A stretch of 64,000 nt of DNA from the NCBI GenBank assembly GCA_000002445.1, contig CM000208.1:3488001-3552000 (forward strand), written 5' to 3'. Numbering within the stretch: position 1 is the stretch's first letter; every line of letters begins with the position of its first letter. This document shows, piece after piece, positions 1,233 through 60,234 of this stretch. Both the position numbers and the translations under genes were made by a program. Origin of the DNA: Trypanosoma brucei (taxonomy: Eukaryota). The notes under the pieces are model-generated. The model had not been told where the DNA came from and did no database searches. It was given only the letters and a program-made list of their open reading frames with translations.

Positions 1233-1276
<44 letters not shown>

Positions 1277-10821: not shown

Positions 10822-11186
10822 CCTAAGGAAAATAATGACAATAGTAACACCAATAGCAGGTTATGAACGGAGTCAACCCTTTTTTTTCACTTTTTTTTCT
10901 CCTTCACGATTCTCAGACCCACCTGAGTAACACCTACACTACACACAGACTCAGGCTAGTGTTCATATGGTAAAAAAAAATAAAGAAAAAAAGCATAACA
11001 TATCAGGCAAGAATCACCAACTGTAATAGTACAAGCAAAGTTAACCTGGCCCTAAGAAGGCCAACCGAGAGGGCACAACAACAGAATCATAGTGGTAGTC
11101 AAACATTCAAGACGAAAAAAAAAAAAGATGCAGATGTACAAACAAGCGAAATCTACACATAACAAAAGGGCGGAAACCCAACAACT

Positions 11187-16486: not shown

Positions 16487-16968
16487 TCTCGGTTCAACTA
16501 TGACAGCTTATCGTTTCAAATAACGGAGGAAAAAGCAATAAAAAGAGCAAAGACAAATTTTTTAAAAAAAAAACGAAAGAAGGTGCTGCAGTGATCAAGG
16601 GAAAGGGAACCTCAAAAAGGGAATGAAGTACGCCGACGCCCACAGACAAACATACGTAGTCAAAAATTAATCAGAACGCCTTCTAATCGCAGAGATCGCT
16701 CGGTGAAAGCCACCCGAGTAGCTAGCAGCATGCTAGAAGATATTGTACATCTGTCTCCCCGCGAAAGGGAAAAAAAAACATACAAATAAACATATATACA
16801 CGCTATAATACAGTTCCTTCGACCTCGTCTATTCCCCTGAACTCTATTACCACTACAGTTCCACTCTCTCAATTTTTCCAACACTTAATTTGTGATAATG
16901 AAAAAGTTGGGGAACCCTAACTTCAGGAATATATATGTATGAGTATTTTCACCGGCGTGCCCTCACTC

Positions 16969-20280: not shown

Positions 20281-20570
20281 CACAAATATATTTACTCCTA
20301 TCTTACACAGGTAACAATCAGGTCACAACAAGGTAAAAAAGAAAAAGAAAAATAACTAAACTACCAACAAACACACCAAAGTACAAACCGTACATAACTC
20401 TGATTAACATATGCTACGAACCTTCATGCATCACCAAATAAAAAAAATAACAAACAAAAAGACACATTAACCAGAATTTTTAAAAAAAAACAAAAATAAA
20501 AATATACATAAACTAGGATCACCAACAAAAAAAATTATCATACAAAGCAACAACACAACATCTAAACTAT

Positions 20571-20726
20571 TTACCATGAATTAACGACCAACTTAAATAT
20601 TGCCTCCCCTTCGGGATTCTTGTCAGGATGTAACTCGAGCGCCTTCAGTTTGTAAGCCTCTCGTATTCCGTCCTTAGACGCAGTCCTTGGAACCCCCAGG
20701 ATCGCATAATAGTCCGCCTGCTGCAT
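20571..20726 (-). pseudogene. truncated J-domain gene fragment (51 codons) left at the boundary of the 3.1 kb segmental duplication
   Basis: Encodes [51 protein letters not shown]. The first 48 aa are identical to the N-terminus of the DnaJ protein at 35440-36771. Identity ends at the duplication boundary (about 20578) and a stop follows immediately. Confidence 0.75.
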
Positions 20727-21275
20727 ACCGTACTTTTTCCCTTCCCTTTCTCAGCAGTAATAAGGGAGAAGTGCAGTGGTAAAAGAAGTAGAAATAAAAT
20801 AAGAGACAGCGACTTTAAGAAGCAGCAACAGACTCATAGATCCAACAAGACAATCAATAGCGAGCTCGGCAAGCACGTAAGCACCGCCCCCATTTACACA
20901 CAAGAAAAAGGAAACATATACTCCGTTGCTTACACGGTCAAGGGGGAAGGATCATAGGGAAACCAGGCAAGCAAAGCCACAATACGTTTCGCCCCACTAT
21001 CGGCAGGGTAAACCACCACATATTAAAGACGAACAGGAAGACATGGAGACAACACGCCACGCACAGAAGCCACACCCAACGTATATAAGTGCGCGAGTCC
21101 CATCTTCTCACACTAGCCATCTATTACATTCAATACTGCATAGGACAAGGGCGTACAGAGAAAATTCAAGCAACCATTCTGAACCGGTTATCCAACAAAT
21201 AAAAATATGCTGCATTCCCTTAACCATCCACACCACAGCATCCTAAAAGGAATGACGGTAACGCACTACGTATGT

Positions 21276-22433
21276 CTATTCACCGTTCCGCCGTCTCTCC
21301 TCCTCTATCGCATCTTCCCATTCAAGATCCTCCATTATGCTCTCCGACTGCCGCAGTGCAGCTGGAAGGCGCGAAAGGACGAAGCCTACTGCGCAAAGTA
21401 ACACAATGGTCTCACCCCACAGTCCAATATATTCCTGCATGAAGTCCAGCCACGAAATTATCACACGGTATTTAAACGTTCCAAGCGTCATCTCCTGTCC
21501 CCATCCACCACTGCGAGCACTGGTATACCGCATATGCTCTGGAGGCTTTATCCCATAGAGAAGATAGTAATTACGTGCCTCAGGGTTCACAAGAATGTCG
21601 TATGCATCCTTCAGCTCCTCAAGAACCATCGACCGGTCTTCCTCATTCTTCTCCGTCTCTTCCACTAATTTCTTTTTTGTTTCGTATGCTCTCTTCAGTT
21701 CAGTGGGGTCGACTGAGCGTGCGTCCTTCGTATCCTTCGTGTCCAGCAAAACACTGAAAAGTTCACGGTCTACCTGAGAGGCAAGGCGATTGTACGCAAG
21801 CTCCACCTGTTGATTATTGGCTTCGCACGCACGACCACAGTGAACCAGCTGCCCTCGCGCATCCTGATGTTCTTTATACGCCTTACGGATTTCCTGCCGG
21901 ATGCGGTAGTTCTCCCGCCGTCGTTCCTTGTCAAGGTCCTCTCCACCTGCCTCATCAGCAGCAGCTCCGGTAGATTTCGGACGGATTCTCCCCTTCACAC
22001 CCAATATTTCGTAATAGCTCTCCGCTTCACTTGGAGTGACGGCACCATCATGAGTCGGATTGACCTCACCGAACCCTTTGCCACTCTCAATCTGAGGTGG
22101 CTCCAGGTTAAACTCCACGTCATACTTCGCTAACGCAAGCAACGAAATGGCAATCACTACCGCTACGGAGAAAAAAATGCGAAACATAGAGCCAGAATTT
22201 TCATGCTCGCCTACGACAGCATCCCACTCGGCTTGAGTGATTATACCACGGTTGGGGTCCCGTCGAGAGTAGCGGTTGGTATTAGCAAACCGTGAATTGG
22301 GCCGCTGCACACCATACATGGCGTTGTGCCGTGCAAACACATCCTCCCGAGCAGCACGAGCCGCGCTCTCCTCCAGCTTGTTACGCCGCTCCTGAGCCTG
22401 CTGCTGCCGTATTTGCGCTGCTCGAGGTATCAT
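21276..22433 (-). CDS. hypothetical membrane protein with a split or atypical J-domain-like sequence (copy 1 of 2)
   Basis: 385 aa from the first ATG at 22433. The track start is TTG. It has an N-terminal TM helix (MFRIFFSVAVVIAISLLAL), then YYEILGV ... KRAYETKKKLV ... AYDILVNPEARNYY reminiscent of J-domain helices II and IV, and a C-terminal TM segment. It is 99.7% identical to 37321-38478. Confidence 0.5.
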   Translation of the reverse strand: MIPRAAQIRQQQAQERRNKLEESAARAAREDVFARHNAMYGVQRPNSRFANTNRYSRRDPNRGIITQAEWDAVVGEHENSGSMFRIFFSVAVVIAISLLALAKYDVEFNLEPPQIESGKGFGEVNPTHDGAVTPSEAESYYEILGVKGRIRPKSTGAAADEAGGEDLDKERRRENYRIRQEIRKAYKEHQDARGQLVHCGRACEANNQQVELAYNRLASQVDRELFSVLLDTKDTKDARSVDPTELKRAYETKKKLVEETEKNEEDRSMVLEELKDAYDILVNPEARNYYLLYGIKPPEHMRYTSARSGGWGQEMTLGTFKYRVIISWLDFMQEYIGLWGETIVLLCAVGFVLSRLPAALRQSESIMEDLEWEDAIEEERRRNGE

Positions 22434-22943
22434 ACTTAGCAACTTAGAGCTACACTCCCCATTAGTAACAAATTAAAAACAGGATTCAAGGAAGAAGAGG
22501 GGGAAAAAAAAAAGAAACGGTGATACGACGGGGAAAATAATCGAAGGAAAGCAGTTTGGTGCGGAAATAGGATTGCGCAAACAATCGCAATGTAGTCGCC
22601 CACATACCACACAGTCAGTTACGTCCCTGTTATTACGTAAAATGATTAACGTCGATCATATAAATGATTTCATTATTCTTTTATTTTCCCCCACTCATAC
22701 AGAAAACTTCCATTTACTTCCGTTGCATATTCATCTTTCTTCTCTTGCCTTATAATAGTTTTTCTCGCTGTTATTCGCTGGTCCCTTCTTAATGTTCGTT
22801 TCCCCTCCCCACTCCAACCCGGGCGTAGGAAACGTGAAACACAAACATATAATCTCAGATCACACAGTCAGACAAAGAGCTCCCCACGCAGCCTCTCCCA
22901 CCAAACGTGGCTTTCCTACATCCTTTTGTCCACATTCCTATTC

Positions 22944-23630
22944 CTATTGCGGGGGGGATTTGTAGTAACCTGTAACCACAGCGTGGTCACGCTCGAACGG
23001 TTCCAGCGAGGCCTGTTCCTTCGGTCTCAGCCCTGAGTCCTTCAGCTTCTGCACCTCCGATGCAAAAACAGTAGCAGAGTCCGCTGTCGAATCAATGCAA
23101 TTGGCCTTTATCGAAATAACAAAACCACCGTTCTGTTTCAAAAAGTGTTGTGCATTCAGAGCTAATATTCGCGCCTGGTCGGGTTGAGCAACATCCATAA
23201 AGATGCAGTCTACCAAACGCGGTATCAGCATCCGATATTTCTGCGGGTAGCGGGCATCCTCAAGGATCGGGACAATATTACTCCGACGTTTCGACATCTC
23301 CTCCAGGTCACGCCCGCTACGGTGTGAGAACTCCACAGCGTACACAACACCCTCCGGACCCACCAAATCAGACACATGACTAACAGTTGTCCCACTGGCA
23401 GCACCCAGGTATAACACTGTTGAGCCCGGTTCCATGTATATCTGAGCAACACCAGCGTAAATCGCCGCCGCAAGTTTCGACCGGTATGGATTCCACACGC
23501 GGAACTCGCAGGACTCGGTCTCTCCGGCAATTGTACCGCTTACGCGCTTCTCACCGTATATGGAGACACCAGGTACGAGTGACTTTGTGGCAAGAGTGTC
23601 TTTACCCGCAAGGAGGTAGCAGCCACGCAT
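22944..23630 (-). CDS. fibrillarin paralogue lacking the N-terminal GAR domain, a truncated copy and possible pseudogene
   Basis: The fibrillarin methyltransferase core is 100% identical in protein to 38988-39902, over 239 aa. The internal Met codon of the full copy is GTG here (23661-23663) and an in-frame TAA lies 11 codons upstream. The first ATG is at 23630 ([11 protein letters not shown]...). Confidence 0.5.
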
Positions 23631-24060
23631 ACGAGCATGGGGTTGAAATATGTTGCCCTTCACCCCACCGCCGGCTTTGCCTCCGCCTCGTCCGCCAAAT
23701 TATTATACTACCAGTTAATGAAAACATTAACAATTTCGGTGCTACAACATTGTTCTTACGATATCTTATTATTTTCTGATGGGCGATTGTACTGTACAGG
23801 AGTCGTGGGGGGTATATATGAGAAAAAAGAGAGAGGAAAAAGGATAGGGTGTCGACCGCAACAAAAAAAAAAAGCAAAAGCCGTCCAAAAATTATGAGCG
23901 TGTACAAAAATGATCCAAATCCTTTGGCAACCGAAGTATGTAAAAGAAATAGCTGAGGCGATAGGTAAACCCCCGAGCCATACCGATGTATTGTCTGCAA
24001 CACATTCGTAATGTTCGGTGACGATATGGACCCTTTCCCGTTACTCAGCATACTTCTACG

Positions 24061-24723
24061 TCACGTGTTTGAGCGCCCACGCTTCCTAAACACTCGGTGA
24101 AGGGAACGAAGTCTTCTATACTGTTTAACTTCATCACTTTCCTGATCCAGAATCAGGTGGACGGCGAAACTGGTTGCTCCACAAAACGGGCAAACCGATG
24201 CGGGATCGTCATCCACGGGGCAATCCTTTTTTGCAGCAGCTGGTTTCCCAACAGACTCATTCACCGCAGCGCAAGCCACAACGTGCCCGCAAGACCAAAA
24301 CCCAAGAAATTGGTGAAGACCTGAGGCAGAGTCATAACCTGTTACTGGGCACCGAATAAGCACCTTTCTGTCCTTCCCCTCCTCTACGTTCGACACCTCA
24401 CACACATCAGATAGTTTCGATATTTTCATATCGCTGTTCAAATCGCTACTGCTCTGCTTATGGAGTGAACGTTTCTCCAATATGTTATCCAACACCGCCT
24501 TCTTTGAATACAGGCGTCCATAAAGATCAAAAACAACCGGAAGCTGCAGCGGCTCCAGTGACAGACCACAATGCGACCACCGCAAAACCTTTTCCTCCTT
24601 TAATTTTCGCGTCGTTTCTCCTCCACCATTGTCCCCTTTCCGCAGCTCATCAGCGGTGAGGAACACACGTGACTTTTCTAATATCCGCCGCTTGTTTGAG
24701 AGTGCTTGGCCATCGCCGCCCAT
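24061..24723 (-). CDS. Rtf2-family RING-finger protein (replication termination factor 2 / RTFDC1-like)
   Basis: Begins MGGDGQA..., which is conserved in Rtf2 proteins. WSHCGLSLEPLQLPVVFDLYGRLYSKKAV and LIRCPVTGYD...FWSCGHVVACAAV...CPFCG match the C2HC2 Rtf2 RING-like domain. ATG at 24721-24723. Confidence 0.6.
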   Translation of the reverse strand: MGGDGQALSNKRRILEKSRVFLTADELRKGDNGGGETTRKLKEEKVLRWSHCGLSLEPLQLPVVFDLYGRLYSKKAVLDNILEKRSLHKQSSSDLNSDMKISKLSDVCEVSNVEEGKDRKVLIRCPVTGYDSASGLHQFLGFWSCGHVVACAAVNESVGKPAAAKKDCPVDDDPASVCPFCGATSFAVHLILDQESDEVKQYRRLRSLHRVFRKRGRSNT

Positions 24724-25112
24724 CGGGGTATAACTTCATAATCATGCATCAGGGGAAACCAATGCCAAATTAAAAAAAAACAAAGATGGCAACGGTGGAG
24801 AGCAGTTTTGTTTGGCAGTGACGGTAGGACAATCAAAGGGGCACGGCGTCCCGAAAACGACTAAGAGCATCCACCGGTACAAAATGTTGCAGAGGGTACA
24901 CGAATAACAAGAAGGTTTGGCTAAACACATGCATACACAGAGAAGGGGAGAAATACATAAAGGTAAGGGAGGCGAGAGATCCATCAACGTTGGCACTGGA
25001 TGGTCGCCACTCACTATGCTCAAAAACAAACAAAAAACTTACTGAGGGCCCCACTACAATCTTTCTTCCATTCCGGCAGTTGATTCCTCACACCTACCGT
25101 CACTTCGCCAAC

Positions 25113-25487
25113 TCATTCACCAAGACGAATATTCAATAACGGAAAACGCAAAGCTGCCGGTTCAAAGTCGTAGTAAACCGTCACCTCATGATGCGGAATA
25201 TCCTCCTCAGAGGTCATTAGTAGTGCCGACGGAGGGGTTAACCCGAACGCCTCACGCAGCGACTGTTTGAAGTTGCGCACGATAAACCCAGGCTCGACAC
25301 GGTTGAGCCACATTCGAAAACCGTCACTTATTGCCCCTCCATGGTGCTCCTTGATTCTCTCCGCCACTCCGTAAAGTTCAAAATTCCAGTCACAGTTAAA
25401 CTGGTCATCAAAGGCGGACACGCCCACCATTCTGTGGTGAACCACAACATTTGTATATTCTCCCCTCGGCACCGTAAGTCCAGTCAT
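25113..25487 (-). CDS. small hypothetical protein (about 124 aa)
   Basis: An ORF in a gene-dense stretch on the minus strand. The track start is TTG and the first ATG is at 25487 (MTGLTVPRGEY...). No family recognised. Confidence 0.35.
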   Translation of the reverse strand: MTGLTVPRGEYTNVVVHHRMVGVSAFDDQFNCDWNFELYGVAERIKEHHGGAISDGFRMWLNRVEPGFIVRNFKQSLREAFGLTPPSALLMTSEEDIPHHEVTVYYDFEPAALRFPLLNIRLGE

Positions 25488-25770
25488 TCTATGAACGCGA
25501 TCCAACAAGCATACACGTATGGCAGCCAGTCGCTAAAACGCTAGCCTACCTCAATAATACTAACGCTAACAGCAAAAACAATGTTCATACACACCATTAA
25601 ATGAGGGAAAGTTGAGAGAAATTTTTCACTCGGATGCATAGCAGGTTCCACATCTGGCACTACTTATTAGTACACGTATATACGGTACGATACATACAGA
25701 GAGGCACGCATATAAGGCAAGCACAACAAAAGGTGGAGGGTGAAAAGATAATAAAAATCAGACTGCGCCA

Positions 25771-26946
25771 TCATCTGTCTTCAGTTCTCTGCTTGTCATC
25801 AACTGCCCCAAGCAACTTTGACTCCAAAAACGAAAACCGCGCCTCCAACGCGTCAAACCGCCCCGATATCTTTTTGTCCATGTTCTCCAGCATCGTCATG
25901 ATGTTTATCATAGTGGCTGAGATAAGCGGTTGCTCTGGCTCCGTATTCCCCTTCCCGCACGACGTCTGGTAGCTTACACTCGAGCCGGCTATGGGCATGG
26001 CCTCGGAGGAGGAATGCTGCGACAAAGCGGAACGGTCGAGCGGGAGGGGTTCCAGGTATACAACAGGGTCCCAAATAACTCGAACCAAATAGAGTGAATC
26101 CACAGAACTTGTGTACACGCACAGCCGCCACCGCTCATGCCGTCCTCTGTATTGGCACTCGTCAGTACAAAAAAATGTCGCTCGGTGATACGCGCTTCCC
26201 TCGTGAACTAATACCTTTTTGCTGCCGAGGGTAAAGGTCCACTTGTGGCCTAAAAAGGTTTCCTCATTGGGGGTAAATATCTCCGCTCGCGTGACGTATG
26301 TCATGCCGTTCCAGGAAGACGTGGGATGCTGGGCAGATGGACCGATGTAACACTTCTGAAGCTCCACATTGGCCGTCTCGAGACTAGACAGTAGCCCCAA
26401 TATGTCACGCTCGCCAATAAGGGGCGAGTTCCCCCAGTAAGGTGTTTCACAGTCCGTGTTACCCTGCTGGGGGGTAACCACTGTCGGTATCCTGTAGCGC
26501 TTGCCGGAAAAATGCATAACCGAATCATCTCCACTGCAACAAGAAAGATTCGTTTGCGGTCCGCGATCGACGGGCTCGGGACCATACTTCCCAACGAGTA
26601 TTGCCATCAATTGTTCTTCCTTCCCCTTATATGCAGCCAAATATTCCGATATTCTGCTCAGATTCTTTGGGTTGTACTGCTCGTAAAAGCGATGAAGTCG
26701 TTGATAGTACCTCGTGCAAGCGTCCCCATCCACACCAGATTGCTTCTCGTGGGCATAGCCGGAGTTACTCTCCCGCGACTCCCAAGCACTCTCAGTTAAA
26801 TTCGAGTGCATCCCTGATCGCACGCTGCACAGCAGTTGCTGAGGAGGAATATTTGAAGGGGGAGAACCACTTGAAGGAGTTGTGTTGCACTCCCGGTTAT
26901 GCGGCTTCGCACACTCGTCTGTTTCGGGGGGCGACAGGCCCTCCAT
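25771..26946 (-). CDS. hypothetical protein (391 aa) containing a YEQYNPKNLSRISEYLAAYKGKEEQLMAILVGKYGPEP motif
   Basis: Clean ATG at 26944-26946. Long ORF with a Ser/Pro-rich N-terminus. The internal motif looks like a conserved helical module, but I cannot assign it to a named family from memory. Confidence 0.45.
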   Translation of the reverse strand: MEGLSPPETDECAKPHNRECNTTPSSGSPPSNIPPQQLLCSVRSGMHSNLTESAWESRESNSGYAHEKQSGVDGDACTRYYQRLHRFYEQYNPKNLSRISEYLAAYKGKEEQLMAILVGKYGPEPVDRGPQTNLSCCSGDDSVMHFSGKRYRIPTVVTPQQGNTDCETPYWGNSPLIGERDILGLLSSLETANVELQKCYIGPSAQHPTSSWNGMTYVTRAEIFTPNEETFLGHKWTFTLGSKKVLVHEGSAYHRATFFCTDECQYRGRHERWRLCVYTSSVDSLYLVRVIWDPVVYLEPLPLDRSALSQHSSSEAMPIAGSSVSYQTSCGKGNTEPEQPLISATMINIMTMLENMDKKISGRFDALEARFSFLESKLLGAVDDKQRTEDR

Positions 26947-28511
26947 GGAGGTAAGGTTTTCTTTCCCTCAGGTTTCAAAAGGGTCAGCCTCCCCCTCATG
27001 CACATATTCCAAGTAGCACCCAGTAACCAAAGTAAAAAAAAAAGAAATTAGCGGTACCGGCATGCATGCAAAGGAGATGAACAACCGATGCAAAGCGGCA
27101 GTTCAGATACGACCGTACAAATATGAGGCCAGAGAGTTATGACAACGCACAAATGCACGGGGGCGAAGCATTGGCCACCTTCGCTGCCCCGGTAGAGCCT
27201 CCAAGTGGAAACCAGCATATTATTCGACCCACACAACCCCAATCGAAGAAAAGGAATCAAAAAGAGGGACAACGGGAAATAGAAAACCAGAAGACAAAAT
27301 GCAATTCCAGTATCCGTCAAGGATTTAAAATCCATGAATCGGCGCATAAAGGGCAGCACCTCACCGAGGGAAACGGAAAAAAAAAGTCCATCATGGCATG
27401 GAACTGAGCGATTTTCCAGTTTTTTTTTTATTTTTATTCTGCACAGCGCATGGTGGCTGAGTTCATTGCTGTCACGTTCTTCAAACCGGCCTGAGTCAAT
27501 CCCCCTCCTGAGAAAACAACAGCAGGACCTCTCCAATACCCCACGGCCGCTAAACCGTATACTCCACTTCGTGTTAGACATATTGTTGCTACTAAAACAT
27601 TAGACGCATAACCGCTTGTAGAATCCGCTACCTCACTTGGTGGGCCCGAAAATGTGAAATCATTCCAGTGGCCGTCCCATTGCTCAAACTGCGCTTAACC
27701 TCACACACTCCTCCACCGGGCGAAACCGCGTGGAGAGATACAGATAATCCATTAACATCCGTCATCGGCTTAATCCACCTCGTGAAAGCACTGCGCTGGT
27801 CTGCGTATCGGGCAAAGACTCAACAAAGAAGGTAACTCAATCACCTCCTTCCACCTGCTGCGGCAAAACACAAGCAAGACGCATCAACACTTAAGCAAAT
27901 GAACAGAGAGATGAAAAAAAAATTTTTAAAAAAGAAAGAAGAAACGTGAAGACATATCGAGTTAATAAATTTTTTTTTTTAAAGTCAAACTCATTTATCC
28001 TCAACCGCGCCTCCCCCTCCAGCCCCGCGACTTTCCCCTCGCGAAGTCAACAACCGTTGGGGGGAGAAAGAAAAACGCTGCGGAATTGGCGCAAGTTGCC
28101 AAGGTGCAGAAATGAGAATTAAGGTGGTGAACACATGTTAATTTTACTCGGTAATTATTCCGCGCTTCAAAAAGAAAATAAACCTTCTCGCCTTACTCCC
28201 ATCATCATTCTTAGCCCCCCTCGCATGAAACACCGCTGCAACCCACCGACCCTCCCCCAACTATTCAGATGTTGGAATACGGAGAACTGGTTAGGAGAGG
28301 GAAGATCTCGGTTTTTTTTCTCAATTCCCCACACTCCTGTCATGCGTCTTCACCCTTCTTAGGAATTCTCAAATGCATCCACTCTCTCGTCACTCTTTTT
28401 GTGTCTTATTGCAGGCTCACAATGGCCTCGACGCTTACACCACCAGGCCCCCTGAGTTGCACAATGAGACAAGCCAAGAAGGTACGAAATGCAACAGCCG
28501 AACCACAATTA

Positions 28512-29435
28512 TCAATCGCGGAATACTGAGTCCAATGGGTTCGGTTCCGGCGCGGGATTTAGCGCCTTGTGAATCTTTGATTTCGCTTTAACGGCCTCGT
28601 TCATGTGTACCTTCTCCAGCCGCCGCGTCTTCCTGTCGCGACGCTGCTCCGTGGGGGTCCTGGCCAGCGCATTTTTCCAAATGACGTTCCCCTTGAAGCA
28701 CCCGTTGAATATGGACGTCGGCTCCAACGTAAAACGTGGTCCAATTTCCATCAATGACTTTGGCTCCGTGTCAATTATCTGGTAGTGACGGAACCATATG
28801 TGTCCATCAAGGTAGAAAAAGCACAAAATGTGGTCAACAAACGGCTTAGATCTTGGGTGATACCGTGGGGTATTGAATGTCATTTGGAGAAGCGACTTCA
28901 CGACCCGTAGGTGTGGTTGGGTCTCAAAATCCCTGTCAAAGTGGAGGAGCGGCCTACTATACTTCAAGCAGTTTCCAGCCATGCGTAGTTCATCTGCCGT
29001 GTGAACATTTGTTAATTGCATCTTCACACTGGGACCCCGCGGAGCCTGAGCAATCCAAAGGTAACTGATATCCTGGCGGTGAGCCTCAATAAAGAGTGAA
29101 CTATTGCACTGGTGAAGCTCGCAAAGTTCAATCACACTATCTCCTAGGCCACCAGTACGACCAAGCTTCGGGTGCTCCCGAGCGTGCGGCATTAAATTCC
29201 GAATGTCAAGAAGAAGATGGCGGTCTCGACTAGATATATTACGGGAGCCCAAAACTAGGCACTTCTGCCGGTTTGTCATCCGCTTATCCGTTGTTGCGCG
29301 TTTCAACTGCATTTCGCCGATCATTGACTCCTCCACCACACCCCTTTCCCCATGAACTTCTTGCTTTGTTTCCTGGGTCCCTCCATGTTCCTCACTTGAA
29401 TCGGCGAGCCGCTGACGTTTCTCCCTCTTAACCAT
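28512..29435 (-). CDS. Brix-domain ribosome-biogenesis protein (BRX1 / RPF / IMP4 family)
   Basis: 307 aa. ATG at 29433-29435. The Brix-domain core is RDRHLLLDIRNLMPHAREHPKL...SSLFIEAHRQDISYLWIAQAPRGPSVKMQLTNVHT...RPLLHFDRDFETQPHLRVVKSLLQMTF...HILCFFYLDGHIWFRHYQI. Basic N- and C-terminal extensions. Confidence 0.75.
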   Translation of the reverse strand: MVKREKRQRLADSSEEHGGTQETKQEVHGERGVVEESMIGEMQLKRATTDKRMTNRQKCLVLGSRNISSRDRHLLLDIRNLMPHAREHPKLGRTGGLGDSVIELCELHQCNSSLFIEAHRQDISYLWIAQAPRGPSVKMQLTNVHTADELRMAGNCLKYSRPLLHFDRDFETQPHLRVVKSLLQMTFNTPRYHPRSKPFVDHILCFFYLDGHIWFRHYQIIDTEPKSLMEIGPRFTLEPTSIFNGCFKGNVIWKNALARTPTEQRRDRKTRRLEKVHMNEAVKAKSKIHKALNPAPEPNPLDSVFRD

Positions 29436-29788
29436 TGACTACTTCCTTCTTTGCAAACAACCTTTTCCACCGCAACACTTTCACAAGTCAATTTAGAAGA
29501 GATAAGATACAATATGAAAGAGACCTGAAACCTCTTTAAACAAATATGGACACGCATTTGCATTATGTGGGCGCAACCCCTGTGCATCAAAAGCCGATAT
29601 TCATCACCAGTCCTCCCAGAGCAAAAAGTTTTTTATTCCTTTTAAAAAAGGCACTGCGCTCATAACAGTAAGAGGAAGAAAAAGCTGGTCTGAGAAGCAA
29701 AGAACAAACCGAACAGGGTTGTGCAACTATTACGGTAGCAAGCATCACCACCCTCTACGTGCCTCCGTATACACAGGGGACAACATTT

Positions 29789-30760
29789 TCATATGACGTC
29801 AAACTGCATGAGAAAAAAACCTACTAAGGACATAATGAGTAAGATGCAACAAACGTATAAGAAAACACTCATTGGCTTCATTTCCTTAACGAGCTTCTTC
29901 AGGCGTACGTTCAGAGTGTGCAGCTGCTCGGTTTGTTTATTCATGACCTGTTCCGTGTTATCTAAATGCTTATTTTGCATATCAATCTGCCCGCCAATCT
30001 CCAGTGCTAGGGTATGCAACCTAGACACTCCCTTTGAAACTACTTCAAGAGAATTTTGTATTTTCTTGTCCTGGGCCGCAATTGTCTTCATCGCCTCCGC
30101 CGTGTCCTCGTGATCCTCCAAGCGGCCTCCACCCACCGTGTCGTCTTCAAGGTTAGCCCCCGCGTACGGATCAACATGACCACCACCGTCCTTTTTGTCT
30201 CGCCACAATGAGCCAAGTTCGCCACGAAGTTGAGCCCTACGACCGACAAGCAATTCCTGACCCACATTCACCCCGCTCGTTGCAGCAATTCGCTGGTGAT
30301 CAGACTCCTTTACCAGCTCCAGAGTAGCAAGACAATCCTTATATTGTCCAGATTTGGCAGAATGTGCCTTCTCCAACAAAGCAATCTTGTGTGGTTTCGC
30401 TTTCTTCCTTCTGGTTTCCTTTTCAAGGGCAGCACCGGACTTATTCACTTCTTGCTTCATTTCTTCCAGTATAGTTTCAAGGTTTCTTATGTCTTTATGT
30501 ATGGCAAGTGATTGTTCCACAGCTATTCGGTCCTGACCGTGGCGCGCAGCGCCCTCATTGCGTTCCTTAATATTTTCCTTAACTCGCTCGACGCAGCGAA
30601 TGAACGCTAACGTCAAATCACGAAAGGGGTCGCCGGTCGTTTCTATCTCTTTGGGCTCATCCGTACGGCCCGCACGCTCACGCACACGGCGGATCCTCTT
30701 TATTGTCTCCCGCAGCATGGCACGCATGAAGCCATCCCTGTTGGGTAAGTAATTAGGCAT
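29789..30760 (-). CDS. Qc (or Qb)-SNARE-like tail-anchored protein (syntaxin 6/8-like SNARE motif)
   Basis: 323 aa. ATG at 30758-30760. A C-terminal heptad SNARE motif LHTLALEIGGQIDMQNKHLDNTEQVMNKQTEQLHTLNVRLKKLV with a central Q. It is followed by a single TM anchor (VFLYVCCILLIMSLVGFFLM) at the extreme C-terminus. Confidence 0.5.
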   Translation of the reverse strand: MPNYLPNRDGFMRAMLRETIKRIRRVRERAGRTDEPKEIETTGDPFRDLTLAFIRCVERVKENIKERNEGAARHGQDRIAVEQSLAIHKDIRNLETILEEMKQEVNKSGAALEKETRRKKAKPHKIALLEKAHSAKSGQYKDCLATLELVKESDHQRIAATSGVNVGQELLVGRRAQLRGELGSLWRDKKDGGGHVDPYAGANLEDDTVGGGRLEDHEDTAEAMKTIAAQDKKIQNSLEVVSKGVSRLHTLALEIGGQIDMQNKHLDNTEQVMNKQTEQLHTLNVRLKKLVKEMKPMSVFLYVCCILLIMSLVGFFLMQFDVI

Positions 30761-31236
30761 TTCCTGCTCTCAATAAACCCCTACACAACCAACTGCAGAA
30801 CAAGAATATATATATATATATATATATAGTTAAAAGCAAAAATGATAAAGCGTTTGCACGGGTGAATGGAGCGGAAATGTACCACACAAAAAACTGCCGA
30901 GCCTCCAACAAGAAAACAGCACACCACCTACACACTTATCGCTGTAACCAATCGACAGATATATTAACACTGTAAACCGCGAGGTGTTGTAAAGAACCTT
31001 TCTTATTAGATATACAGAGAAAAAAAACGGGAACCGCAAAGGGAAAAGAAAGTAAAACGCCCGCGTCGTTCGATTCATTCCTTGGATTGCCCATCACTTT
31101 TCTCTCCTTAAGGTGGAACATTCTTCCCTCACTCCTTTCATTGGCCTTTTTCTCTTTCGTCTCCCCATTCCTTTACTATTTCCCCTCTCCCTTGCTCGTG
31201 CGGACCCGCGCCCCCAGCTCCCATACTGGAAAACGA

Positions 31237-32265
31237 TTACCATACACCCTCACCGTTGCCAAGCTGACGGTTGATGGTTGTAGAATCGCGAAGGGAACGA
31301 AGAGGGTGTTCTCCCAAATCGGGTTGACGCACTCTGTTCATTGTGGGGCCGAAGTTCCGCTGCGGGAGTTGCGAGGGAGGGCCATAAGAATTGTATTGCA
31401 TTCCTTGGTGAAAAGGTCTTGTACTGCTCTCCAGTGGCCGCCAACCCATTGACGACAAGTCGACACCATGGTTAGGCTGCGGATTCCAGTGCGTATTTCG
31501 AGTGATATCCGACACTGCGACCGGATTCGGGAAAATACGAGCTGCAGCCGACGGTTCCGCCCGGTAGAAATGCTGGGACTGCGTGGTGGGCAAACCCAGC
31601 TGTGGTGGTTGTTCACCCGGTTGTCCAGAAAAGGTAAACGTGCATAAATTCTCTGACGCCACAGCTGTCACTCGTGGAGGCAGCACAGTTTGCTCCTCAA
31701 AGATACGGTCAATCTCAAGCACATAATACTTCACTGGAGGTGCCTGTTCCATTTCCTCTTCCTGTGGTTCGATGGGTACGTCCACAACGGGAATCTCTTC
31801 CTGTATAGTAATGTACGGAGGTTCTTCGTTGTTGCTCGGTGGTTCCATAGTTATAGGAACCTCATCCTGAACCTCAGCTGGTGAGTCTACAGCATCCTCC
31901 GTCACCGCAATCGTATCACCTCCATTCAAAAAGGTTACGGGTTCGGGTTCGGGTTCCGACTCCGGCTCCGGGGCCGGTAGAGCAACCACAACTTCGTTCT
32001 TACCGCGGGCGATCTCTAAAAACGAAGGTGAACTACCACCCCTCGCCCATGCATTAGAAGGAGGCACACGAACCTTTTGTTGCACCAAAGGGCCTTTGGT
32101 TGAAGGGGGGTCGGTTGGTCGCGAGTCCCCACCTTTGTTGCCTACGGGAGCCCTTTTTTTTGCCTCGTTTAGCGGTTGATTTTGCTTTTCCTCTTTATTT
32201 GGCCGACTGCGCGTACCATCCTTCTCATCCGCCTTCACGGGTCGTCCTTTACCTCTCGCGTTCAT
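31237..32265 (-). CDS. hypothetical Pro/Glu-rich low-complexity protein
   Basis: 342 aa from the first ATG at 32265. The track adds TTG-Leu. It contains a PEPESEPEPEP acidic repeat and P/Q-rich segments. No recognisable domain. Confidence 0.4.
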   Translation of the reverse strand: MNARGKGRPVKADEKDGTRSRPNKEEKQNQPLNEAKKRAPVGNKGGDSRPTDPPSTKGPLVQQKVRVPPSNAWARGGSSPSFLEIARGKNEVVVALPAPEPESEPEPEPVTFLNGGDTIAVTEDAVDSPAEVQDEVPITMEPPSNNEEPPYITIQEEIPVVDVPIEPQEEEMEQAPPVKYYVLEIDRIFEEQTVLPPRVTAVASENLCTFTFSGQPGEQPPQLGLPTTQSQHFYRAEPSAAARIFPNPVAVSDITRNTHWNPQPNHGVDLSSMGWRPLESSTRPFHQGMQYNSYGPPSQLPQRNFGPTMNRVRQPDLGEHPLRSLRDSTTINRQLGNGEGVW

Positions 32266-32527
32266 TAACAATCAACCGACAAAATAAAAATTACTACAGA
32301 CAATCCTTTTCTAGCAGAAAAATAACAAAAACCCTTTAGAGGCACCCCGAAAGGGGAAGAACATGAGGAAAAAGAACGAAGCATTCATAATACAACCACA
32401 AGCACTAAAAAGATAGGAGGAAAAAGAACAAGGTAAACGTACAAAGAGGCAACACACTCAAAACATTAAATTAAAAATACCAAACCGAAAAATAAAGCAG
32501 AAACAATCCTGTACAGCCCGGATCTCG

Positions 32528-33328
32528 TTAAGCAGCCACCATCTTCCTTCCCATAGAGAGGAACTCGGAGTGCTCGTCGGTGGGGTCGCGCGACACCTCC
32601 GTCTCCGCCCAGAGGTCGGGGGTAAGGAAGCCGTATGTCTTGCGCAGTGCATAGAATGTGGCCATGATGAAATTACCACGCGTACGCGTCTTACCACATG
32701 AGCTAGTATATACGTCCTCAACGCCGGCAAACTCAAGAATCTTCTTCGGCACAGGCGCAGCAACGATACCAGCACCACGTGGAGCAGGGATCAAGCGAAC
32801 GGCAACGGAGCCGCACTTCCCGGTTACCTTGATAGGGATTGTATGCGGTTCACCGATCTTGTTACCCCAGTAGCCACGGCGCACAGGCACAATACTCAGC
32901 TTCGCAGCGATCATTGACGCACGGATGGCCAGGGACACCTCCTTGCCGACGCGGGCGCCGACACCAATGTGGCCGTTACCGTCACCAACAACATTGAAGG
33001 CCTTGAAGCGTGTGCGCTGTCCGGCAGACGTTGCCTTCTGCACGGGGAAAACAAGCATCATCTCATCACGGAGGTCGCCTTCGCGGATCAGTTGGTCCAC
33101 GATCTGATGCTCTTTGATGGGCATCGAGAAGAGGAAGATTTCCTCCAGCGAGGTGATCTTTTGATCCTTCACAAGGCGGCCAAGTTTTGTGCATGGCACC
33201 CATTCCTTCTCATCACCACCACCGCCACGACCGCCACGACCACCGCGACCGCCGCGACCGCCACGTCCGCCACGGCCACGACCGAAGCCGCGCTGCTCGC
33301 CACCTGTACCGCGTGGTGCGTCAGCCAT
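32528..33328 (-). CDS. RPS2: 40S ribosomal protein S2 (uS5), copy 2
   Basis: The 266 aa product is identical to copy 1. DNA identity begins at the stop codon and ends 4 nt upstream of the ATG. The track's MRM start at 33334 is GTG. The true ATG is at 33326-33328. Confidence 0.92.
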
Positions 33329-33675
33329 TCTCACTGTTCTTGGACGTCTGCTTTGGGCGGGTCGACGGAAGTCGGCAGTGTTGAGTAGAAGTAGAAGAAA
33401 AAGAGGGAAATCGACAGGTAGGGAATCATATATATATATATATATTTATATGCAAATGTGTTAAAAAACTCAGAAATTCATGGTGATCAAATAGAAACAC
33501 CGCCGAAGCAGTGTCATTTAACGACAAAAAGTTGTTTGTCTGCGAGAAAAGTAATATCTGATGCCCTGACACGGTAAAGGATTTAACCCCTACATCGCTG
33601 CATCAGATGGGTATATCAGGGCGGTAGACAAAAGAGGAATTATTAGCAGGGGACAGTGGTTTAGATGACGAGTTC

Positions 33676-34851
33676 CTAGAGTTTTGTCTCCCTCTCCAGA
33701 AGACGCAAAAAATTTCCCGGCACAAGTCCCTTCCGCTCCAATTTCTTGTCATCAGTTGCGGTAGTTGCCTGGCACCAACCATTTTCCGTGTAGTCATCAA
33801 CAATAAACCGGTCCCCGGTCTTGAATCCAATAAACCCCTCTTTCTCGGGGGATACATAATCAAACATGGCTACGTAGACACGTCCACCATTACAGTGTTG
33901 CGCATCGTGTCGATTTGACGAGCGAGCCGTTGCCTCTACTGTCTCATCAGACCACTCCTCCTCACTACTACAATCTTCACTCTCAGACAGTTCATCCTGT
34001 AATTCATCATCCTCCTCACTCAGGGTCAAGTCAGAATCTTTTCGTCTTAAAGACTGCCGAGCTGTCCAGTTACGGTACCGAAGATGTGCCCGGTACAGTA
34101 TTTCCATGAGTATAAATAGTGCAACCCTTAAAACCCACGACTTCCATCTTCCGCCTGCTGGAGGCGCAGAAGACCCACTGGGGGCTAATTCCGCGGCTTT
34201 TGCAACCGCTGCTCCAGAAATCCCTTTTGGTACTGCACCCTCCTGACTCTTTACTATAGACTTCAGAGCCTTTATACTGTAGTACGTTCCAAAGCCAACC
34301 CCAAACAGTTCTAAGCCCGACCGCATTAATTGGAAAAGAATCTGAAGCACATGACCAACGACCTCGATGGTTGAGTGTATAGCCAGCTGCTTCTTCTGTT
34401 GGCGATGCCTTTCTACAGCCTCCTTTTCTTGTCGCCGGCGCGCCCGTCTCTCCCGGCGAGTTTCGGTTGCTAAGGGTTTAGCAAACTGCAGAGGCTGCTG
34501 CTGGTCAGGCTGGGAAGGTAACAACCCACCACCAGCCTGGTCACCGGGAAGCGCTAAGGCCCCATTCATGCCATTGCCGCCTATAGCACCACCAACTGGA
34601 TTGCCCAGAATGCCGTTCATCCCCATGCCACCATAGGTACCGCTCATTGAAGAAAGACCTCCTCCATACATTGAACTCATCCCGCCACCAAGGCCACCAT
34701 AAACTGAGCTCATCCCTCCGCCATAGCCACCGTACATTGAAGACATTCCAGTGCCGTACATCGATGGCATCCCTGCACCATAACCACCGTACATTGAAGA
34801 CATTCCACTGCCGTACATCGATGGCATCCCTGCACCATAACCACCGTACAT
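33676..34851 (-). CDS. PEX13: peroxin PEX13-like glycosomal import protein with an N-terminal YG/MYGG repeat region, a central membrane region, a C-terminal SH3 domain and a C-terminal TKL tripeptide
   Basis: The N-terminus has (S)MYGGYGAGMP repeats, encoded by a 57 bp DNA tandem repeat. Hydrophobic core. A C-terminal SH3-like sequence RVYVAMFDYVSPEKEGFIGFKTGDRFIVDDYTENGWCQ...GLVPGNFL. It ends ...ETKL. The YG-rich plus SH3 architecture is diagnostic of PEX13. The first ATG is at 34851, while the track start at 34926 is GTG. Confidence 0.7.
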   Translation of the reverse strand: MYGGYGAGMPSMYGSGMSSMYGGYGAGMPSMYGTGMSSMYGGYGGGMSSVYGGLGGGMSSMYGGGLSSMSGTYGGMGMNGILGNPVGGAIGGNGMNGALALPGDQAGGGLLPSQPDQQQPLQFAKPLATETRRERRARRRQEKEAVERHRQQKKQLAIHSTIEVVGHVLQILFQLMRSGLELFGVGFGTYYSIKALKSIVKSQEGAVPKGISGAAVAKAAELAPSGSSAPPAGGRWKSWVLRVALFILMEILYRAHLRYRNWTARQSLRRKDSDLTLSEEDDELQDELSESEDCSSEEEWSDETVEATARSSNRHDAQHCNGGRVYVAMFDYVSPEKEGFIGFKTGDRFIVDDYTENGWCQATTATDDKKLERKGLVPGNFLRLLERETKL

Positions 34852-34860
34852 TTTTCCTTC
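34690..34860 (-). repeat. 57 bp in-frame tandem repeat (about 3 units) encoding the MYGGYGAGMPSMYG(S/T)GMSS repeats of PEX13
   Basis: cattgaagacattcca[c/g]tgccgtacatcgatggcatccctgcaccataaccaccgtaca is repeated back to back. Confidence 0.8.
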
Positions 34861-35439
34861 GCTTCGAGTATACACGCGCTGATATATGTAGATATACTTG
34901 GGTGCGTGCACGTCCTCTAGAAACACTTTCCTTTCCCTTTCACCTTTACACTTTTTTCGCAGTGTTAAGCTCGATTGCCATGGGGGGGGGGGTGAGTGAC
35001 AAGGAAGCAGAGTATAGATTTCGGCAAGATAGAATAGGTTATGTTGATGGAATCAATATTACAGCTGATGCAAAGCGTATTTCACGTTAACCCGCACACA
35101 TACTTGATAATAAAGCCGCCCTCTCATGTTCCGTGACGTGAAATTGATTCGCAAGCGGCAGACGCAAGGAAGAAAAAAAACGCGCAACAACCCAGCCCCA
35201 GGAGTAGCTCTGGGGGCAAAAAAAAAAACTGGTGACTAAAGAGGGCACGACGGCAGGGGGGTCAACAGCAGAGGAAGAAAAAAAATTGGAGGCGTTAATA
35301 ACAACAACAACTTGTAAAAACAAAAACGAGAAAAAACCTTCGTACATAAAGGGAGAGTATGCTTCTACACACATGCTACCGCGTGAAGGAAATCTTTTTA
35401 ATTATTGGTGAACACTTGGAGAAACAAATTGGAGAAGGT

Positions 35440-36771
35440 TTATAGTTTCCACTCATCCAAGTTAATTGGTTGACCTGATCGCTTCGCCTCCCGCAATGCA
35501 TCAAGCTTCGCCTGCATTTCGGCCTCAATGCGGTCGGTTTCACGTCTCATTGCCTCCACGTCGTCTTGATGACGCTGGCGTTCCAAGACAATTTGTTCCA
35601 ACAAGGCCTTTCGTTTCCCATCAAGCTCTCGTGTTGCCTTCAGGCGTGCTTCCTCCTGCTCAGCGGTCAGTTGGCGCAATGTCTCTTCCTGGTGCTGCTC
35701 CTCCTGACGTTGGAGCTCTTCTTGCCTCAACCGCGCTTCCTCTTCCTGTTTCCGCTTCGCCTCTCGAGCTTTCTCCGATGCTTCGTGTTGAGCTTGTTGA
35801 GCAAGGGCTTCTATTATCTTCAGCTCCGCTTTTTGCAATTCCGATGCTATATCTTGTTCGCGCTGCCTCTGGCGTTCACGGCGTGAGCGTTCCTGTTCAG
35901 TTGTGTCTTGCTGAGCCTGTTCCTTCTCAGTAGCCAAGCGTCGCCGCTCCTCCTCTAGTTCTCTCTTTTTAGTAGCAAGCTCCTTGAGATGGGTATCGAG
36001 ATCCACCTGCTGTTTCTTCTGAAACTCAGCATACTCAGCCATCTTCTGTTTCTCTTGTTCGGCCTTGTGTTGCCTTGTAGCCGCCTCCCTCTCACGGCGA
36101 CGGTTCTCTTCTTCCCACGCCATCCTTGCCCTCTCGCGCTCCAACTCCTCTTCCCGTTCGCGCTCTCTCTTCTCCTGGAGATTCCTCCATTCCTCCGCTC
36201 GCTTCTTTTCCTCGGTCTCCAACTGTTTTGCATAGTCTAGTTTAGCTTTGCAAACCTCTTCGGCCTGTCTAAGTTCTTCTTGTTTTCTTTTGAACCATTC
36301 TGAGAAGCTTGTTTCCGAGTTGCCGGGTCTACGAAAGCCTTCACAGTTATTTTTCGAATTCGGGGCACTGCCCCCGTACGTCCCCTTTGTATACTGCATA
36401 AAGATATCTTCAAACAATTTCTCTTCTGACATCGGGTTTGCTCTAGAAGTACGCGTACCATAAGAATTGGGAACAGGGCCCGCCGCGTTCGCTGCCCTTT
36501 CAGTGGCATTTGGTCTCGGTACATTGTGGGCTCGCGCCGTAGGACCATCCCGCCGAACTTCTCTCAGGCCTATCTCTTGATCATACTTTCGACGCTTAGT
36601 GGGCGAACGCAATATCTGGTATGCATTAACGACCAACTTAAATATTGCCTCCCCTTCGGGATTCTTGTCAGGATGTAACTCGAGCGCCTTCAGTTTGTAA
36701 GCCTCTCGTATTCCGTCCTTAGACGCAGTCCTTGGAACCCCCAGGATCGCATAATAGTCCGCCTGCTGCAT
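35440..36771 (-). CDS. DnaJ (J-domain) protein with a long charged coiled-coil (E/R/K/Q-rich) C-terminal region
   Basis: 443 aa. ATG at 36769-36771. The N-terminal canonical J domain is [60 protein letters not shown], with the HPD motif. The remainder is highly charged ER/EK repeats, such as EEERRRLATEKEQAQQ. Confidence 0.8.
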   Translation of the reverse strand: MQQADYYAILGVPRTASKDGIREAYKLKALELHPDKNPEGEAIFKLVVNAYQILRSPTKRRKYDQEIGLREVRRDGPTARAHNVPRPNATERAANAAGPVPNSYGTRTSRANPMSEEKLFEDIFMQYTKGTYGGSAPNSKNNCEGFRRPGNSETSFSEWFKRKQEELRQAEEVCKAKLDYAKQLETEEKKRAEEWRNLQEKREREREEELERERARMAWEEENRRREREAATRQHKAEQEKQKMAEYAEFQKKQQVDLDTHLKELATKKRELEEERRRLATEKEQAQQDTTEQERSRRERQRQREQDIASELQKAELKIIEALAQQAQHEASEKAREAKRKQEEEARLRQEELQRQEEQHQEETLRQLTAEQEEARLKATRELDGKRKALLEQIVLERQRHQDDVEAMRRETDRIEAEMQAKLDALREAKRSGQPINLDEWKL

Positions 36772-39738: not shown

Positions 39739-39902
39739 CCTCCGCGGCCCCCACCTCGGCCTCCTCCGCGACCGCCACGGCCGGAGCCACGACCCCCGCC
39801 GCGTCCACCACCGCCGCCGCCGCCGAAAGCTCCCCGTCCTCTACCGCCACGGCCAAAGCCGCCACCACCAGCACCGCGGCCGCCCCCTCTACCACCGCGC
39901 AT
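38988..39902 (-). CDS. NOP1: fibrillarin (rRNA 2'-O-methyltransferase NOP1) with an N-terminal GAR domain
   Basis: 304 aa. ATG at 39900-39902. The N-terminal roughly 65 aa are RGG/GGRG repeats. The core [40 protein letters not shown]...[37 protein letters not shown]...[11 protein letters not shown]...[13 protein letters not shown]...[13 protein letters not shown] is canonical fibrillarin. Confidence 0.92.

Positions 39903-60117: not shown

Positions 60118-60234
<117 letters not shown>

Follow-up and report, generated by a model that had tools for sequence, protein, structure and literature searches.

A direct segmental duplication on chromosome 10 of Trypanosoma brucei: donor copy, inserted copy and concerted evolution

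Two direct repeats of 3.1 kb, denoted A1 and A2, lie within one polycistronic transcription unit of Trypanosoma brucei chromosome 10, in the stretch of 64,000 nucleotides analysed here (the window). The pair very probably arose by dispersed segmental duplication from A2, followed by ectopic gene conversion. Its structure, the direction of copying, a bracket for its age and the concerted evolution of the copies follow from the comparisons below, and crossover between the copies is documented in the literature.

The repeat pair itself is already known: Tb927.10.14630 is an annotated gene, and Jones et al. 2015 (PLoS Negl Trop Dis, PMC4689576) described two regions of ~3.1 kb, Tb927.10.14620/14630 and.14740/14750, that are ~99% identical and flank 12.9 kb. 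In an oxaborole-resistant Lister 427 clone they observed a hemizygous deletion of the interval on one homologue, attributed to homologous crossover between the regions corresponding to A1 and A2, and the Lister 427 read depth was read as the same duplication. This is the same object as our pair, measured here as 3118-nt repeats around a centre of 12,927 bp. However, the paper does not consider which copy was the donor, nor does it treat the truncation of genes at the edges, the J-domain stub or conversion between the copies.

Extent and edges of the repeats

Self-BLAST and a MAFFT alignment with 400-nt flanks place the two blocks in direct orientation at the positions given in Table 1. The identity is 99.775% over 3118 columns of the MAFFT alignment, with six mismatches (20579, 21816, 22825, 22886, 23646 and 23663) and one single-base indel at ~22499-22508. 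An earlier note on this DNA had reported blocks more than 99% identical, and this figure holds with slightly shifted ends. The self-alignment that it proposed for fixing the breakpoints shows that the identity stops at both edges, dropping within ~10 nt on either side to 20-40% per 50-nt window; the right boundary of A1 is fuzzy by 3 nt (23693-23696). Both boundaries cut genes, as had also been claimed: on the left, A2 stops after codon 50 of the DnaJ gene (443 aa), and on the right its boundary is at codon 55/56 of the fibrillarin gene (304 aa). When the A1 flanks are compared with the A2 flanks, the region downstream of DnaJ and the rest of the window, only low-complexity matches and no residual homology are seen.

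Table 1. Features of the repeat pair and its surroundings (positions in the window)
Feature	Position	Strand	Evidence
Unique T-rich spacer from A1 to the start codon of LRRP (Tb927.10.14610)	20281..20575	-	no homology downstream of DnaJ
Unannotated 51-codon ORF (DnaJ stub), MQQADYY...FKLVVNSW*	20571..20726	-	Pfam DnaJ 1-47/63
Copy A1, derived and inserted: DnaJ stub, J385 (Tb927.10.14620), truncated fibrillarin (Tb927.10.14630)	20576..23693	-	99.78% to A2
J385, intact second copy of a 385-aa J-domain membrane protein (Tb927.10.14620, EAN78829)	21276..22433	-	exact protein match
Annotated 228-aa 'fibrillarin, putative' without GAR (Tb927.10.14630, EAN78830/XP_827942)	22944..23630	-	equals residues 77-304 of the A2 protein
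Open ATG-less leader of the A1 fibrillarin frame: GAR remnant, Val66 (GTG 23661-23663), junction 23693-23696, TAA 23700-23702	23631..23702	-	
Unique spacer from the Rtf2 stop codon to A1	23694..24060	-	no homology to A2 flanks
Unique region between the repeats, 12,927 bp (Tb927.10.14640-14730)	23694..36620		
Full-length DnaJ gene, 443 aa (Tb927.10.14730), first 50 codons inside A2	35440..36771	-	Pfam, protein match
Copy A2, ancestral donor: DnaJ codons 1-50, J385 (Tb927.10.14740), fibrillarin codons 56-304 (Tb927.10.14750)	36621..39737	-	alignment, conserved order
Full-length fibrillarin gene, 304 aa	38988..39902	-	
GAR-coding codons 1-55 of full-length fibrillarin2 (Tb927.10.14750), outside the duplicated part	39738..39902	-	alignment

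Exact protein matches to the entries EAN78828-30, EAN78839-40 and EAN78848-50 identify the locus as part of chromosome 10 of T. b. brucei TREU927. With its 3118 nt and 99.78% identity, the pair has the features of a low-copy repeat (direct, longer than 1 kb, more than 95% identical, on one chromosome, with deletion or duplication seen), the deletion being taken from PMC4689576 and not recomputed. A retroposed (processed) copy, which would derive from a mature mRNA, carry a poly(A) tail and a target-site duplication and lack intergenic DNA, is ruled out, as the block includes parts of three genes together with two whole intergenic spacers; neither a poly(A) tract nor a flanking direct repeat was found at either junction. 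Rfam and tRNA scans of the window yielded no matches.

Direction, age and homogenisation

The gene order fibrillarin-J385-DnaJ-SH3/PEX13-RPS2 is contiguous in two T. cruzi loci, in T. grayi, in six loci of the Leishmaniinae and in L. donovani. Rtf2 and LRRP are adjacent, with a gap of 264 nt in T. cruzi, 406 nt in T. vivax and 233 nt in T. melophagium, and the A1 insertion is absent from the Rtf2-LRRP spacer in these three species; the T. brucei gap is 3780 nt. Hence the synteny across T. cruzi, T. vivax, T. melophagium and the Leishmaniinae makes A2 the ancestral locus and A1 an insertion into the Rtf2-LRRP spacer, which supports the earlier suggestion that an internal segment had been copied with A2 as the donor.

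T. b. gambiense DAL972 has the same A1 junctions, with a single HSP covering window positions 29631-16946, and a contig of T. equiperdum OVI spans the stub junction. T. b. brucei, T. b. gambiense and T. equiperdum separated from one another only after the duplication. The event postdates the divergence of the T. vivax lineage and predates the radiation of the T. brucei subspecies group, Trypanozoon, a bracket that is wide because T. congolense, whose Rtf2 orthologue has no contig on record, is missing from the comparison.

The distance between the paralogues A1 and A2 is 8 within TREU927 and 4 within DAL972, and some of this within-genome similarity could be assembly-derived, since the DAL972 assembly was guided by TREU927 and a 3.1 kb repeat exceeds the Sanger read length; however, the DAL972 copies do differ at these 4 sites, and protein data from a separate assembly agree, as both J385 proteins of T. 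b. equiperdum (RHW69245, RHW69429) have the sequence common to the two DAL972 copies, from which the two TREU927 copies differ. The orthologue distances between TREU927 and DAL972 are 19 and 13, and at no fewer than nine sites both TREU927 copies have one state and both DAL972 copies the other. Thus the paralogues are closer than the orthologues despite the common junctions, which is the pattern of concerted evolution. Since the paralogues cluster by genome and both copies changed together at at least nine sites, we infer gene conversion between A1 and A2. In these alignments, the near-identity of the copies points to ongoing conversion rather than to a recent origin.

The duplication had previously been called recent from its identity of more than 99%. 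A single, very recent copy-paste event, with the 99.8% identity giving its age and the copies independent ever since, would fit the mere seven differences across 3.1 kb and the lack of the insertion in T. vivax and T. cruzi. It is nevertheless distinctly unlikely: the insertion is common to three lineages, with identical junctions in TREU927, DAL972 and T. equiperdum; orthologues differ at 13-19 sites and paralogues at 4-8; and changes shared by both paralogues of one lineage cannot arise by independent evolution after one event. The description as recent is therefore not supported.

Another possibility is a larger initial duplication, either a ~16 kb tandem or one including the whole of DnaJ, from which everything beyond DnaJ codon 50 was later deleted; the left edge would then be a secondary scar. 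A scaffold of T. equiperdum OVI seems to put the full 443-aa DnaJ beside LRRP, and the nearby direct repeats of RPS2 could favour unequal exchange. However, that scaffold has a 10-N gap (L006, positions 15917-15926), and in it the repeat has caused an A2-path contig to be joined to the very contig that carries the stub junction; hence the arrangement in OVI is rejected. Moreover, the A1 flanks retain no homology to the region downstream of DnaJ or elsewhere in the window, and an exchange between RPS2 genes would duplicate neither fibrillarin nor J385. We regard this history as highly improbable. An assembly artefact, with a single locus entered twice in the reference, has in its favour just the general risk posed by near-identical repeats, and its probability is negligible given that each copy has distinct unique flanks and clean junctions on both sides, that the structure recurs in DAL972, with a T. 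equiperdum contig also running through the stub junction, that the T. b. equiperdum assembly has two J385 genes, and that Lister 427 provides both read depth and a deletion between the copies (PMC4689576).

In the preferred scheme of duplication from A2 with subsequent conversion, 3.1 kb from fibrillarin codon 56 to DnaJ codon 50 would have been copied into the Rtf2-LRRP spacer, 12.9 kb downstream of A2 in the direction of transcription, possibly through break repair by templated synthesis. Ectopic gene conversion would have held A1 and A2 nearly identical since then, and both also act as substrates for non-allelic homologous recombination that deletes a 16 kb unit.

Two other repeat families of the locus are comparable. 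The RPS2 pair resembles A1/A2 in that its paralogues are identical within a genome and diverge between species; it is also present in T. vivax and T. melophagium, with ~100% identity over exactly the CDS within each species. The difference is that homogenisation of RPS2, an ancient duplication, stops precisely at the ends of the CDS, whereas the identity of the A block spans two intergenic spacers as well and its duplication is confined to the T. brucei lineage, as far as sampled. In the preferred scheme, the same conversion process keeps the two ancient RPS2 genes 100% identical. The MCP5 ADP/ATP carrier array in the same window is similar, comprising three 1380-nt units with 99.9% identity by self-BLAST.

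Genes and gene remnants of copy A1

J385 is the sole complete gene of the block in A1. Its product differs from that of the A2 copy by one residue (site 21816). According to a 2026 preprint, the A2 J385 is an ER/nuclear-envelope protein proximal to BiP.

The DnaJ gene is represented in A1 by the predicted stub, diverging to a stop as described before; the number of DnaJ codons kept is 49, not 48, followed by Ser-Trp-stop. The stub covers helices I and II, the HPD motif (residues 33-35) and the start of helix III, corresponding to residues 3-49 of E. coli DnaJ. Helix III is only half present and helix IV is lacking altogether, and hence the stub, with the HPD motif and profile positions 1-47 of 63, does not form the four-helix J-domain of PF00226. 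All three of its private changes, D19E and I43V in DAL972 and A50S in TREU927, are nonsynonymous, which suggests a lack of function, and the stub is most likely a decaying relic. The T-rich spacer on its LRRP side probably carries the trans-splicing signal of LRRP, which in turn would determine where any transcript of the stub is polyadenylated.

In A1, the fibrillarin frame is open from 23699; the first ATG in this frame, as had been noted, lies at 23630. The frame matches PF01269 at positions 2-226 of 227 (E = 9.6e-100), retaining the SAM-binding motif and all the columns invariant in an alignment of 12 kinetoplastid fibrillarins; thus the frame encodes a complete Fibrillarin/Nop1 methyltransferase domain. 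The 228-aa product begins at PF01269 position ~7, about 7-9 residues inside the crystallised core of human fibrillarin. It lacks the GAR domain of eukaryotic Fibrillarin/Nop1 proteins, which is complete, with 65 residues, in the A2 fibrillarin. The earlier note had the whole GAR lost and the methyltransferase core kept; the latter is correct, and most of the GAR is indeed gone, but a remnant of 10 residues persists between the in-frame TAA and the first ATG.

The GTG codon had been interpreted as an initiator changed from ATG, with the TAA 11 codons upstream. The distance is in fact 13 codons, and the direction of the change is the reverse. Val (GTG) occupies position 66 in A1, in T. cruzi, in the A2 copies of T. 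b. gambiense and T. b. equiperdum and in another three contigs of A2 type; among the compared sequences, ATG is found only in TREU927 A2, and hence GTG is ancestral. Codon 66 is internal in full-length fibrillarin and was never an initiator.

The only possible product of the A1 gene would be the putative GAR-less protein starting at 23630. The spacer between Rtf2 and A1 contains polypyrimidine tracts at 23874-23863 and 23844-23820, and the first AG, at ~23792, is the predicted splice site. Three ATGs precede the main one: that at 23750 is in frame and opens a 2-codon uORF, that at 23727 is out of frame and opens a 41-codon uORF ending at 23602, beyond the main ATG, and that at 23638 is out of frame. 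The ORF would be poorly translated owing to these upstream AUGs, which together with the start inside the folded core argue against robust expression.

The A1 product would be identical, residue for residue, to residues 77-304 of fibrillarin2 (Tb927.10.14750), differing in the absence of the 55-residue GAR head and 21 more residues up to Met77. Fibrillarin2 marks the nucleolus and Cajal body (Budzak et al. 2022, PMC8748868); the same paper acknowledges three T. brucei fibrillarins. The naturally GAR-less archaeal fibrillarins (PDB 1fbn, 1g8a) share the methyltransferase core and align over most of the 228-aa ORF; unlike this ORF, which starts within the N-terminal beta-domain, they have the latter complete. 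The eukaryotic GAR is reported to hold a nucleolar targeting signal (PMC7608942), and therefore a eukaryotic copy without it may mislocalise. In the literature searched, nothing is published on expression or location of the A1 product. That Tb927.10.14630 is trans-spliced by way of the polypyrimidine tract of its unique upstream spacer and translated from 23630 into a stable, archaeal-like protein with location and partners unlike those of fibrillarin2 seems unlikely. If it were so, the product could reside outside the nucleolus or compete for Nop56/Nop58. It would then modulate box C/D snoRNP activity in a manner specific to T. brucei, while conversion holds it in register with its parent.

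A GAR-less fibrillarin as an old trypanosomatid trait is rejected, as all the short models proved to be artefacts. In the 90% protein cluster, the short models are 228 aa long for T. cruzi and T. grayi, and 241/245 aa for L. donovani. Those of T. cruzi result from assembly frameshifts within a GAR repeat that is otherwise present, that of T. grayi from a contig ending 36 nt upstream of the gene, and those of L. donovani from a spliced workaround across an intact in-frame GAR; the 225-aa calls on Leishmaniinae metagenome contigs have the full GAR upstream. The 239-aa 'MKGNIF' Logan proteins were rejected as A1 transcripts: they come from A2-type contigs with the GAR and have no spliced-leader sequence. 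Exact look-ups of the foreign part of contig L017 gave no match.

Consequences for the analysis of the locus

The A1 fibrillarin CDS and 3' UTR are the same as those of A2, and therefore only the 5' UTR or an N-terminal peptide separates the copies. Reads and peptides of Tb927.10.14750/14740 match Tb927.10.14630/14620 as well, as do constructs for RNAi or tagging, with only the 5' flank to distinguish the copies. For copy-number analysis, the pair matters as a proven hotspot at which the 16 kb unit is lost. Finally, the locus is a clear case where paralogue identity misleads dating, since gene conversion resets the identity.

The repeat and its genes

Comparison of the window with itself yields one long direct repeat, with copies A1 (lower coordinates) and A2 (higher coordinates). 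The copies are 99.775% identical over 3118 columns, differing by six substitutions and one single-base indel, a likeness beyond what chance could yield. In an alignment with 400-nt flanks, the identity is 1.0 in the block and 0.2–0.4 beyond it, switching within about 10 nt at either end, so that the sharp-edged block proposed in the earlier note is confirmed. All long ORFs of the window are on the minus strand, hence the genes are read from high to low coordinates. By exact protein look-ups the window belongs to T. brucei brucei TREU927, chromosome 10. Genes Tb927.10.14620 to.14750 are ordered after Jones et al. 2015 (PMC4689576, Table 2), while.14600 and.14610 are extrapolated from the run of gene ids.

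Features of the window (identifiers abbreviated from Tb927.10.; accessions from exact protein look-ups)
Feature	Position	Identifier	Remark
AT-rich region	1-4000		GC 30–32% (about 49% elsewhere), no long ORFs, (AT)n at 1238-1295; may be a transcription-unit end or strand-switch region
RPS2	15686-16490	.14600 (inferred)
LRRP		.14610 (inferred); EAN78828	LRR protein, 1103 aa
T-rich spacer	20281-20575		probably contains LRRP splice signal
Stub ORF	20571-20726		51 codons
A1	20576-23693
J385 (A1)		.14620	EAN78829 + EAN78840 for the two J385 proteins
Fibrillarin-228		.14630; EAN78830/XP_827942	first ATG 23630; TAA 23700-23702
Upstream AUGs	23750, 23727, 23638
Predicted splice AG	~23792
Polypyrimidine tracts	23874-23863, 23844-23820		coding strand
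Shared-state sites	23577, 23496, 23142, 22783, 22679, 22587, indel near 22508, 21704, 20946
Rtf2		.14640	followed by four genes, including Brix (.14680) and syntaxin (.14690)
RPS2	32528-33332	.14710
PEX13/SH3		.14720	N-terminus, 34664-34852: tandem repeats of 57 nt and 33 nt; encoded repeat rich in Gly/Tyr/Met (MYGGYGAGMPS...)
DnaJ		.14730; EAN78839	443 aa
A2	36621-39737
J385 (A2)		.14740
Fibrillarin-304		.14750	codon 66 at 39705-39707
MCP5 array	52711-56644	EAN78848-50	three tandem mitochondrial ADP/ATP carrier genes, 307 aa; period 1380 nt; 99.8–99.9% identity, spacers included
(TG)40 microsatellite	60154-60233		perfect

The feature is an annotated and published low-copy repeat of the reference genome. 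Jones et al. 2015 (PMC4689576) found Tb927.10.14620/14630 and.14740/14750 to be about 99% identical and, in a clone resistant to oxaborole, explained a hemizygous deletion by homologous crossover; the region between the repeats is 12,927 bp here. Tb927.10.14630 is already an annotated gene, and a third T. brucei fibrillarin, a paralogue of 300 aa, shares about 73% identity with the A1/A2 pair (three fibrillarins are acknowledged by Budzak et al., PMC8748868). Our additions are modest: the polarity of the event, its age bracket, the gene-conversion signature, an unannotated J-domain stub, a correction at codon 66, and the exposure of other fibrillarin models lacking the glycine/arginine-rich N-terminal domain (GAR) as artefacts.

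Genes are cut at both ends of A2: the downstream end lies directly after DnaJ codon 50, and the upstream end coincides with base 1 of codon 56 in fibrillarin. The sole complete gene of the block encodes J385, a 385-aa protein described in a 2026 preprint as a BiP-proximal ER/nuclear-envelope membrane protein with a J-domain. The stub at the left edge of A1 consists of DnaJ codons 1–49, unaltered, followed by Ser-Trp-stop; it covers only positions 1–47 of the 63-position Pfam J-domain (E. coli DnaJ residues 3–49). Fibrillarin codons 56–304 are present in A1, where an in-frame TAA closes the frame. The ORF from the first ATG encodes 228 aa, the same as residues 77–304 of the A2 protein, and begins about 7–9 residues inside the crystallised human fibrillarin fragment. 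The structural reading of the earlier note, with truncated genes at both edges and a 51-codon stub, was thus largely right.

Its claim that an ATG had changed to GTG in A1 is backwards. Codon 66 of the full-length fibrillarin is GTG (Val) in A1, in both copies of DAL972 (T. b. gambiense), in A2 of T. b. equiperdum and in three further A2-type contigs, and the aligned T. cruzi codon is also GTG. Among the copies and strains examined, ATG occurs only in TREU927 A2. Hence the change is a private Val66Met in that copy, and A1 has lost no initiator.

The further "GAR-less" models from this protein cluster are artefacts, either of annotation or of assembly. The T. cruzi 228-aa model (about 9700–10000 of two contigs) results from long-read assemblies with a frameshifted GGN repeat, the T. 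grayi 228-aa model (contig positions 1–36) from a contig end, and the L. donovani 245-aa model (contig 10001–11179) is a spliced gene model across an intact GAR. A 5144-nt contig, Logan ERR7929156, has a third context of the fibrillarin core, 99.2% identical, with an in-frame TAA just upstream. Its junction at about 4199 corresponds to window 23680/39724, 13 nt inside the A1/A2 boundary; past it lies unrelated sequence with a long antisense ORF containing an AAA-ATPase P-loop, for which exact protein look-ups gave no match. The contig may be chimeric, or it may represent a third truncated copy that is strain-specific.

Direction, age and origin of the duplication

The order fibrillarin–J385–DnaJ–SH3–RPS2 is retained in T. 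cruzi, T. grayi, bee-gut Leishmaniinae and L. donovani, which makes A2 the ancestral locus, and hence the donor, as proposed earlier. The empty-site comparison covered T. cruzi, T. vivax and T. melophagium. In all three, Rtf2 is directly followed by LRRP, with gaps of 264, 406 and 233 nt, respectively; the T. brucei gap is 3780 nt, of which A1 makes up 3118. Hence A1 was inserted into the Rtf2–LRRP spacer after the T. vivax split. The A1 junctions are identical in DAL972, and a contig of T. equiperdum OVI starts within the stub and continues into LRRP, so the event precedes the Trypanozoon radiation.

The simplest origin of A1 would be a single templated repair event, in which a break in the Rtf2–LRRP spacer was filled with 3.1 kb copied from a site 13 kb upstream. 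The alternative, a larger duplication later cut back by deletion, lacks support. The A1 flanks show no likeness to the sequence past the A2 edges, and the only assembly that seems to place a full DnaJ beside LRRP, that of OVI, is a gapped scaffold. In CZPT02000935.1 a 10-N gap (15917–15926) joins an A2-path contig, running from the full DnaJ into SH3, to the contig starting inside the A1 stub, hence the deposited annotation wrongly places DnaJ-443 beside LRRP. Retroposition is excluded, as the block holds intergenic DNA and has neither a poly(A) tract nor a target-site duplication.

Concerted evolution of the copies

We aligned both copies from TREU927 and DAL972, T. b. equiperdum A2 and the OVI consensus. 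At least nine sites have one state in both TREU927 copies and the other in both DAL972 copies. The paralogues differ at 8 positions in TREU927 and 4 in DAL972, whereas the orthologues differ at 19 (A1) and 13 (A2). Had the copies evolved independently after a single duplication, the reverse pattern would be expected; thus the copies have been homogenised since the lineages parted, a signature of gene conversion. Independent support comes from the J385 protein look-up: one sequence is shared by both T. b. equiperdum copies (RHW69245, RHW69429) and both DAL972 copies, and differs from both TREU927 copies. The high identity, taken in the earlier note as a sign of recent origin, reflects concerted evolution.

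The RPS2 pair at the same locus is homogenised within the genome by the same process. The two genes are 100% identical across 805 nt, with limits exactly at the CDS ends. The pair is also present in T. vivax and T. melophagium, with about 100% identity within species and only about 70% between species, which makes the pair an ancient duplicate maintained by CDS-limited gene conversion.

Expression signals and constraint

The stub has inherited the 5' spacer of DnaJ, and its polyadenylation would be governed by the splice signal of LRRP, which probably lies in the T-rich spacer. All three private substitutions in the stub are nonsynonymous (D19E and I43V in DAL972, A50S in TREU927), and the DnaJ N-terminus itself is invariant; this is weak evidence of relaxed constraint. 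In the fibrillarin CDS all three lineage-specific changes are silent, since the 228-aa protein is the same in both subspecies.

Trans-splicing in trypanosomes is directed by a polypyrimidine tract followed by AG. The unique spacer upstream of A1 contains strong polypyrimidine tracts, and the first AG past them is the predicted splice site of the A1 fibrillarin. The resulting 5' UTR would include three AUGs ahead of the main start: the first, in frame, opens a two-codon uORF; the second, out of frame, a 41-codon uORF ending at 23602, beyond the main start; the third, also out of frame, is 8 nt upstream of it. Under the scanning model, these AUGs predict that the 228-aa ORF would be translated weakly, and its sequence context speaks against strong expression of a GAR-less fibrillarin in T. 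brucei.
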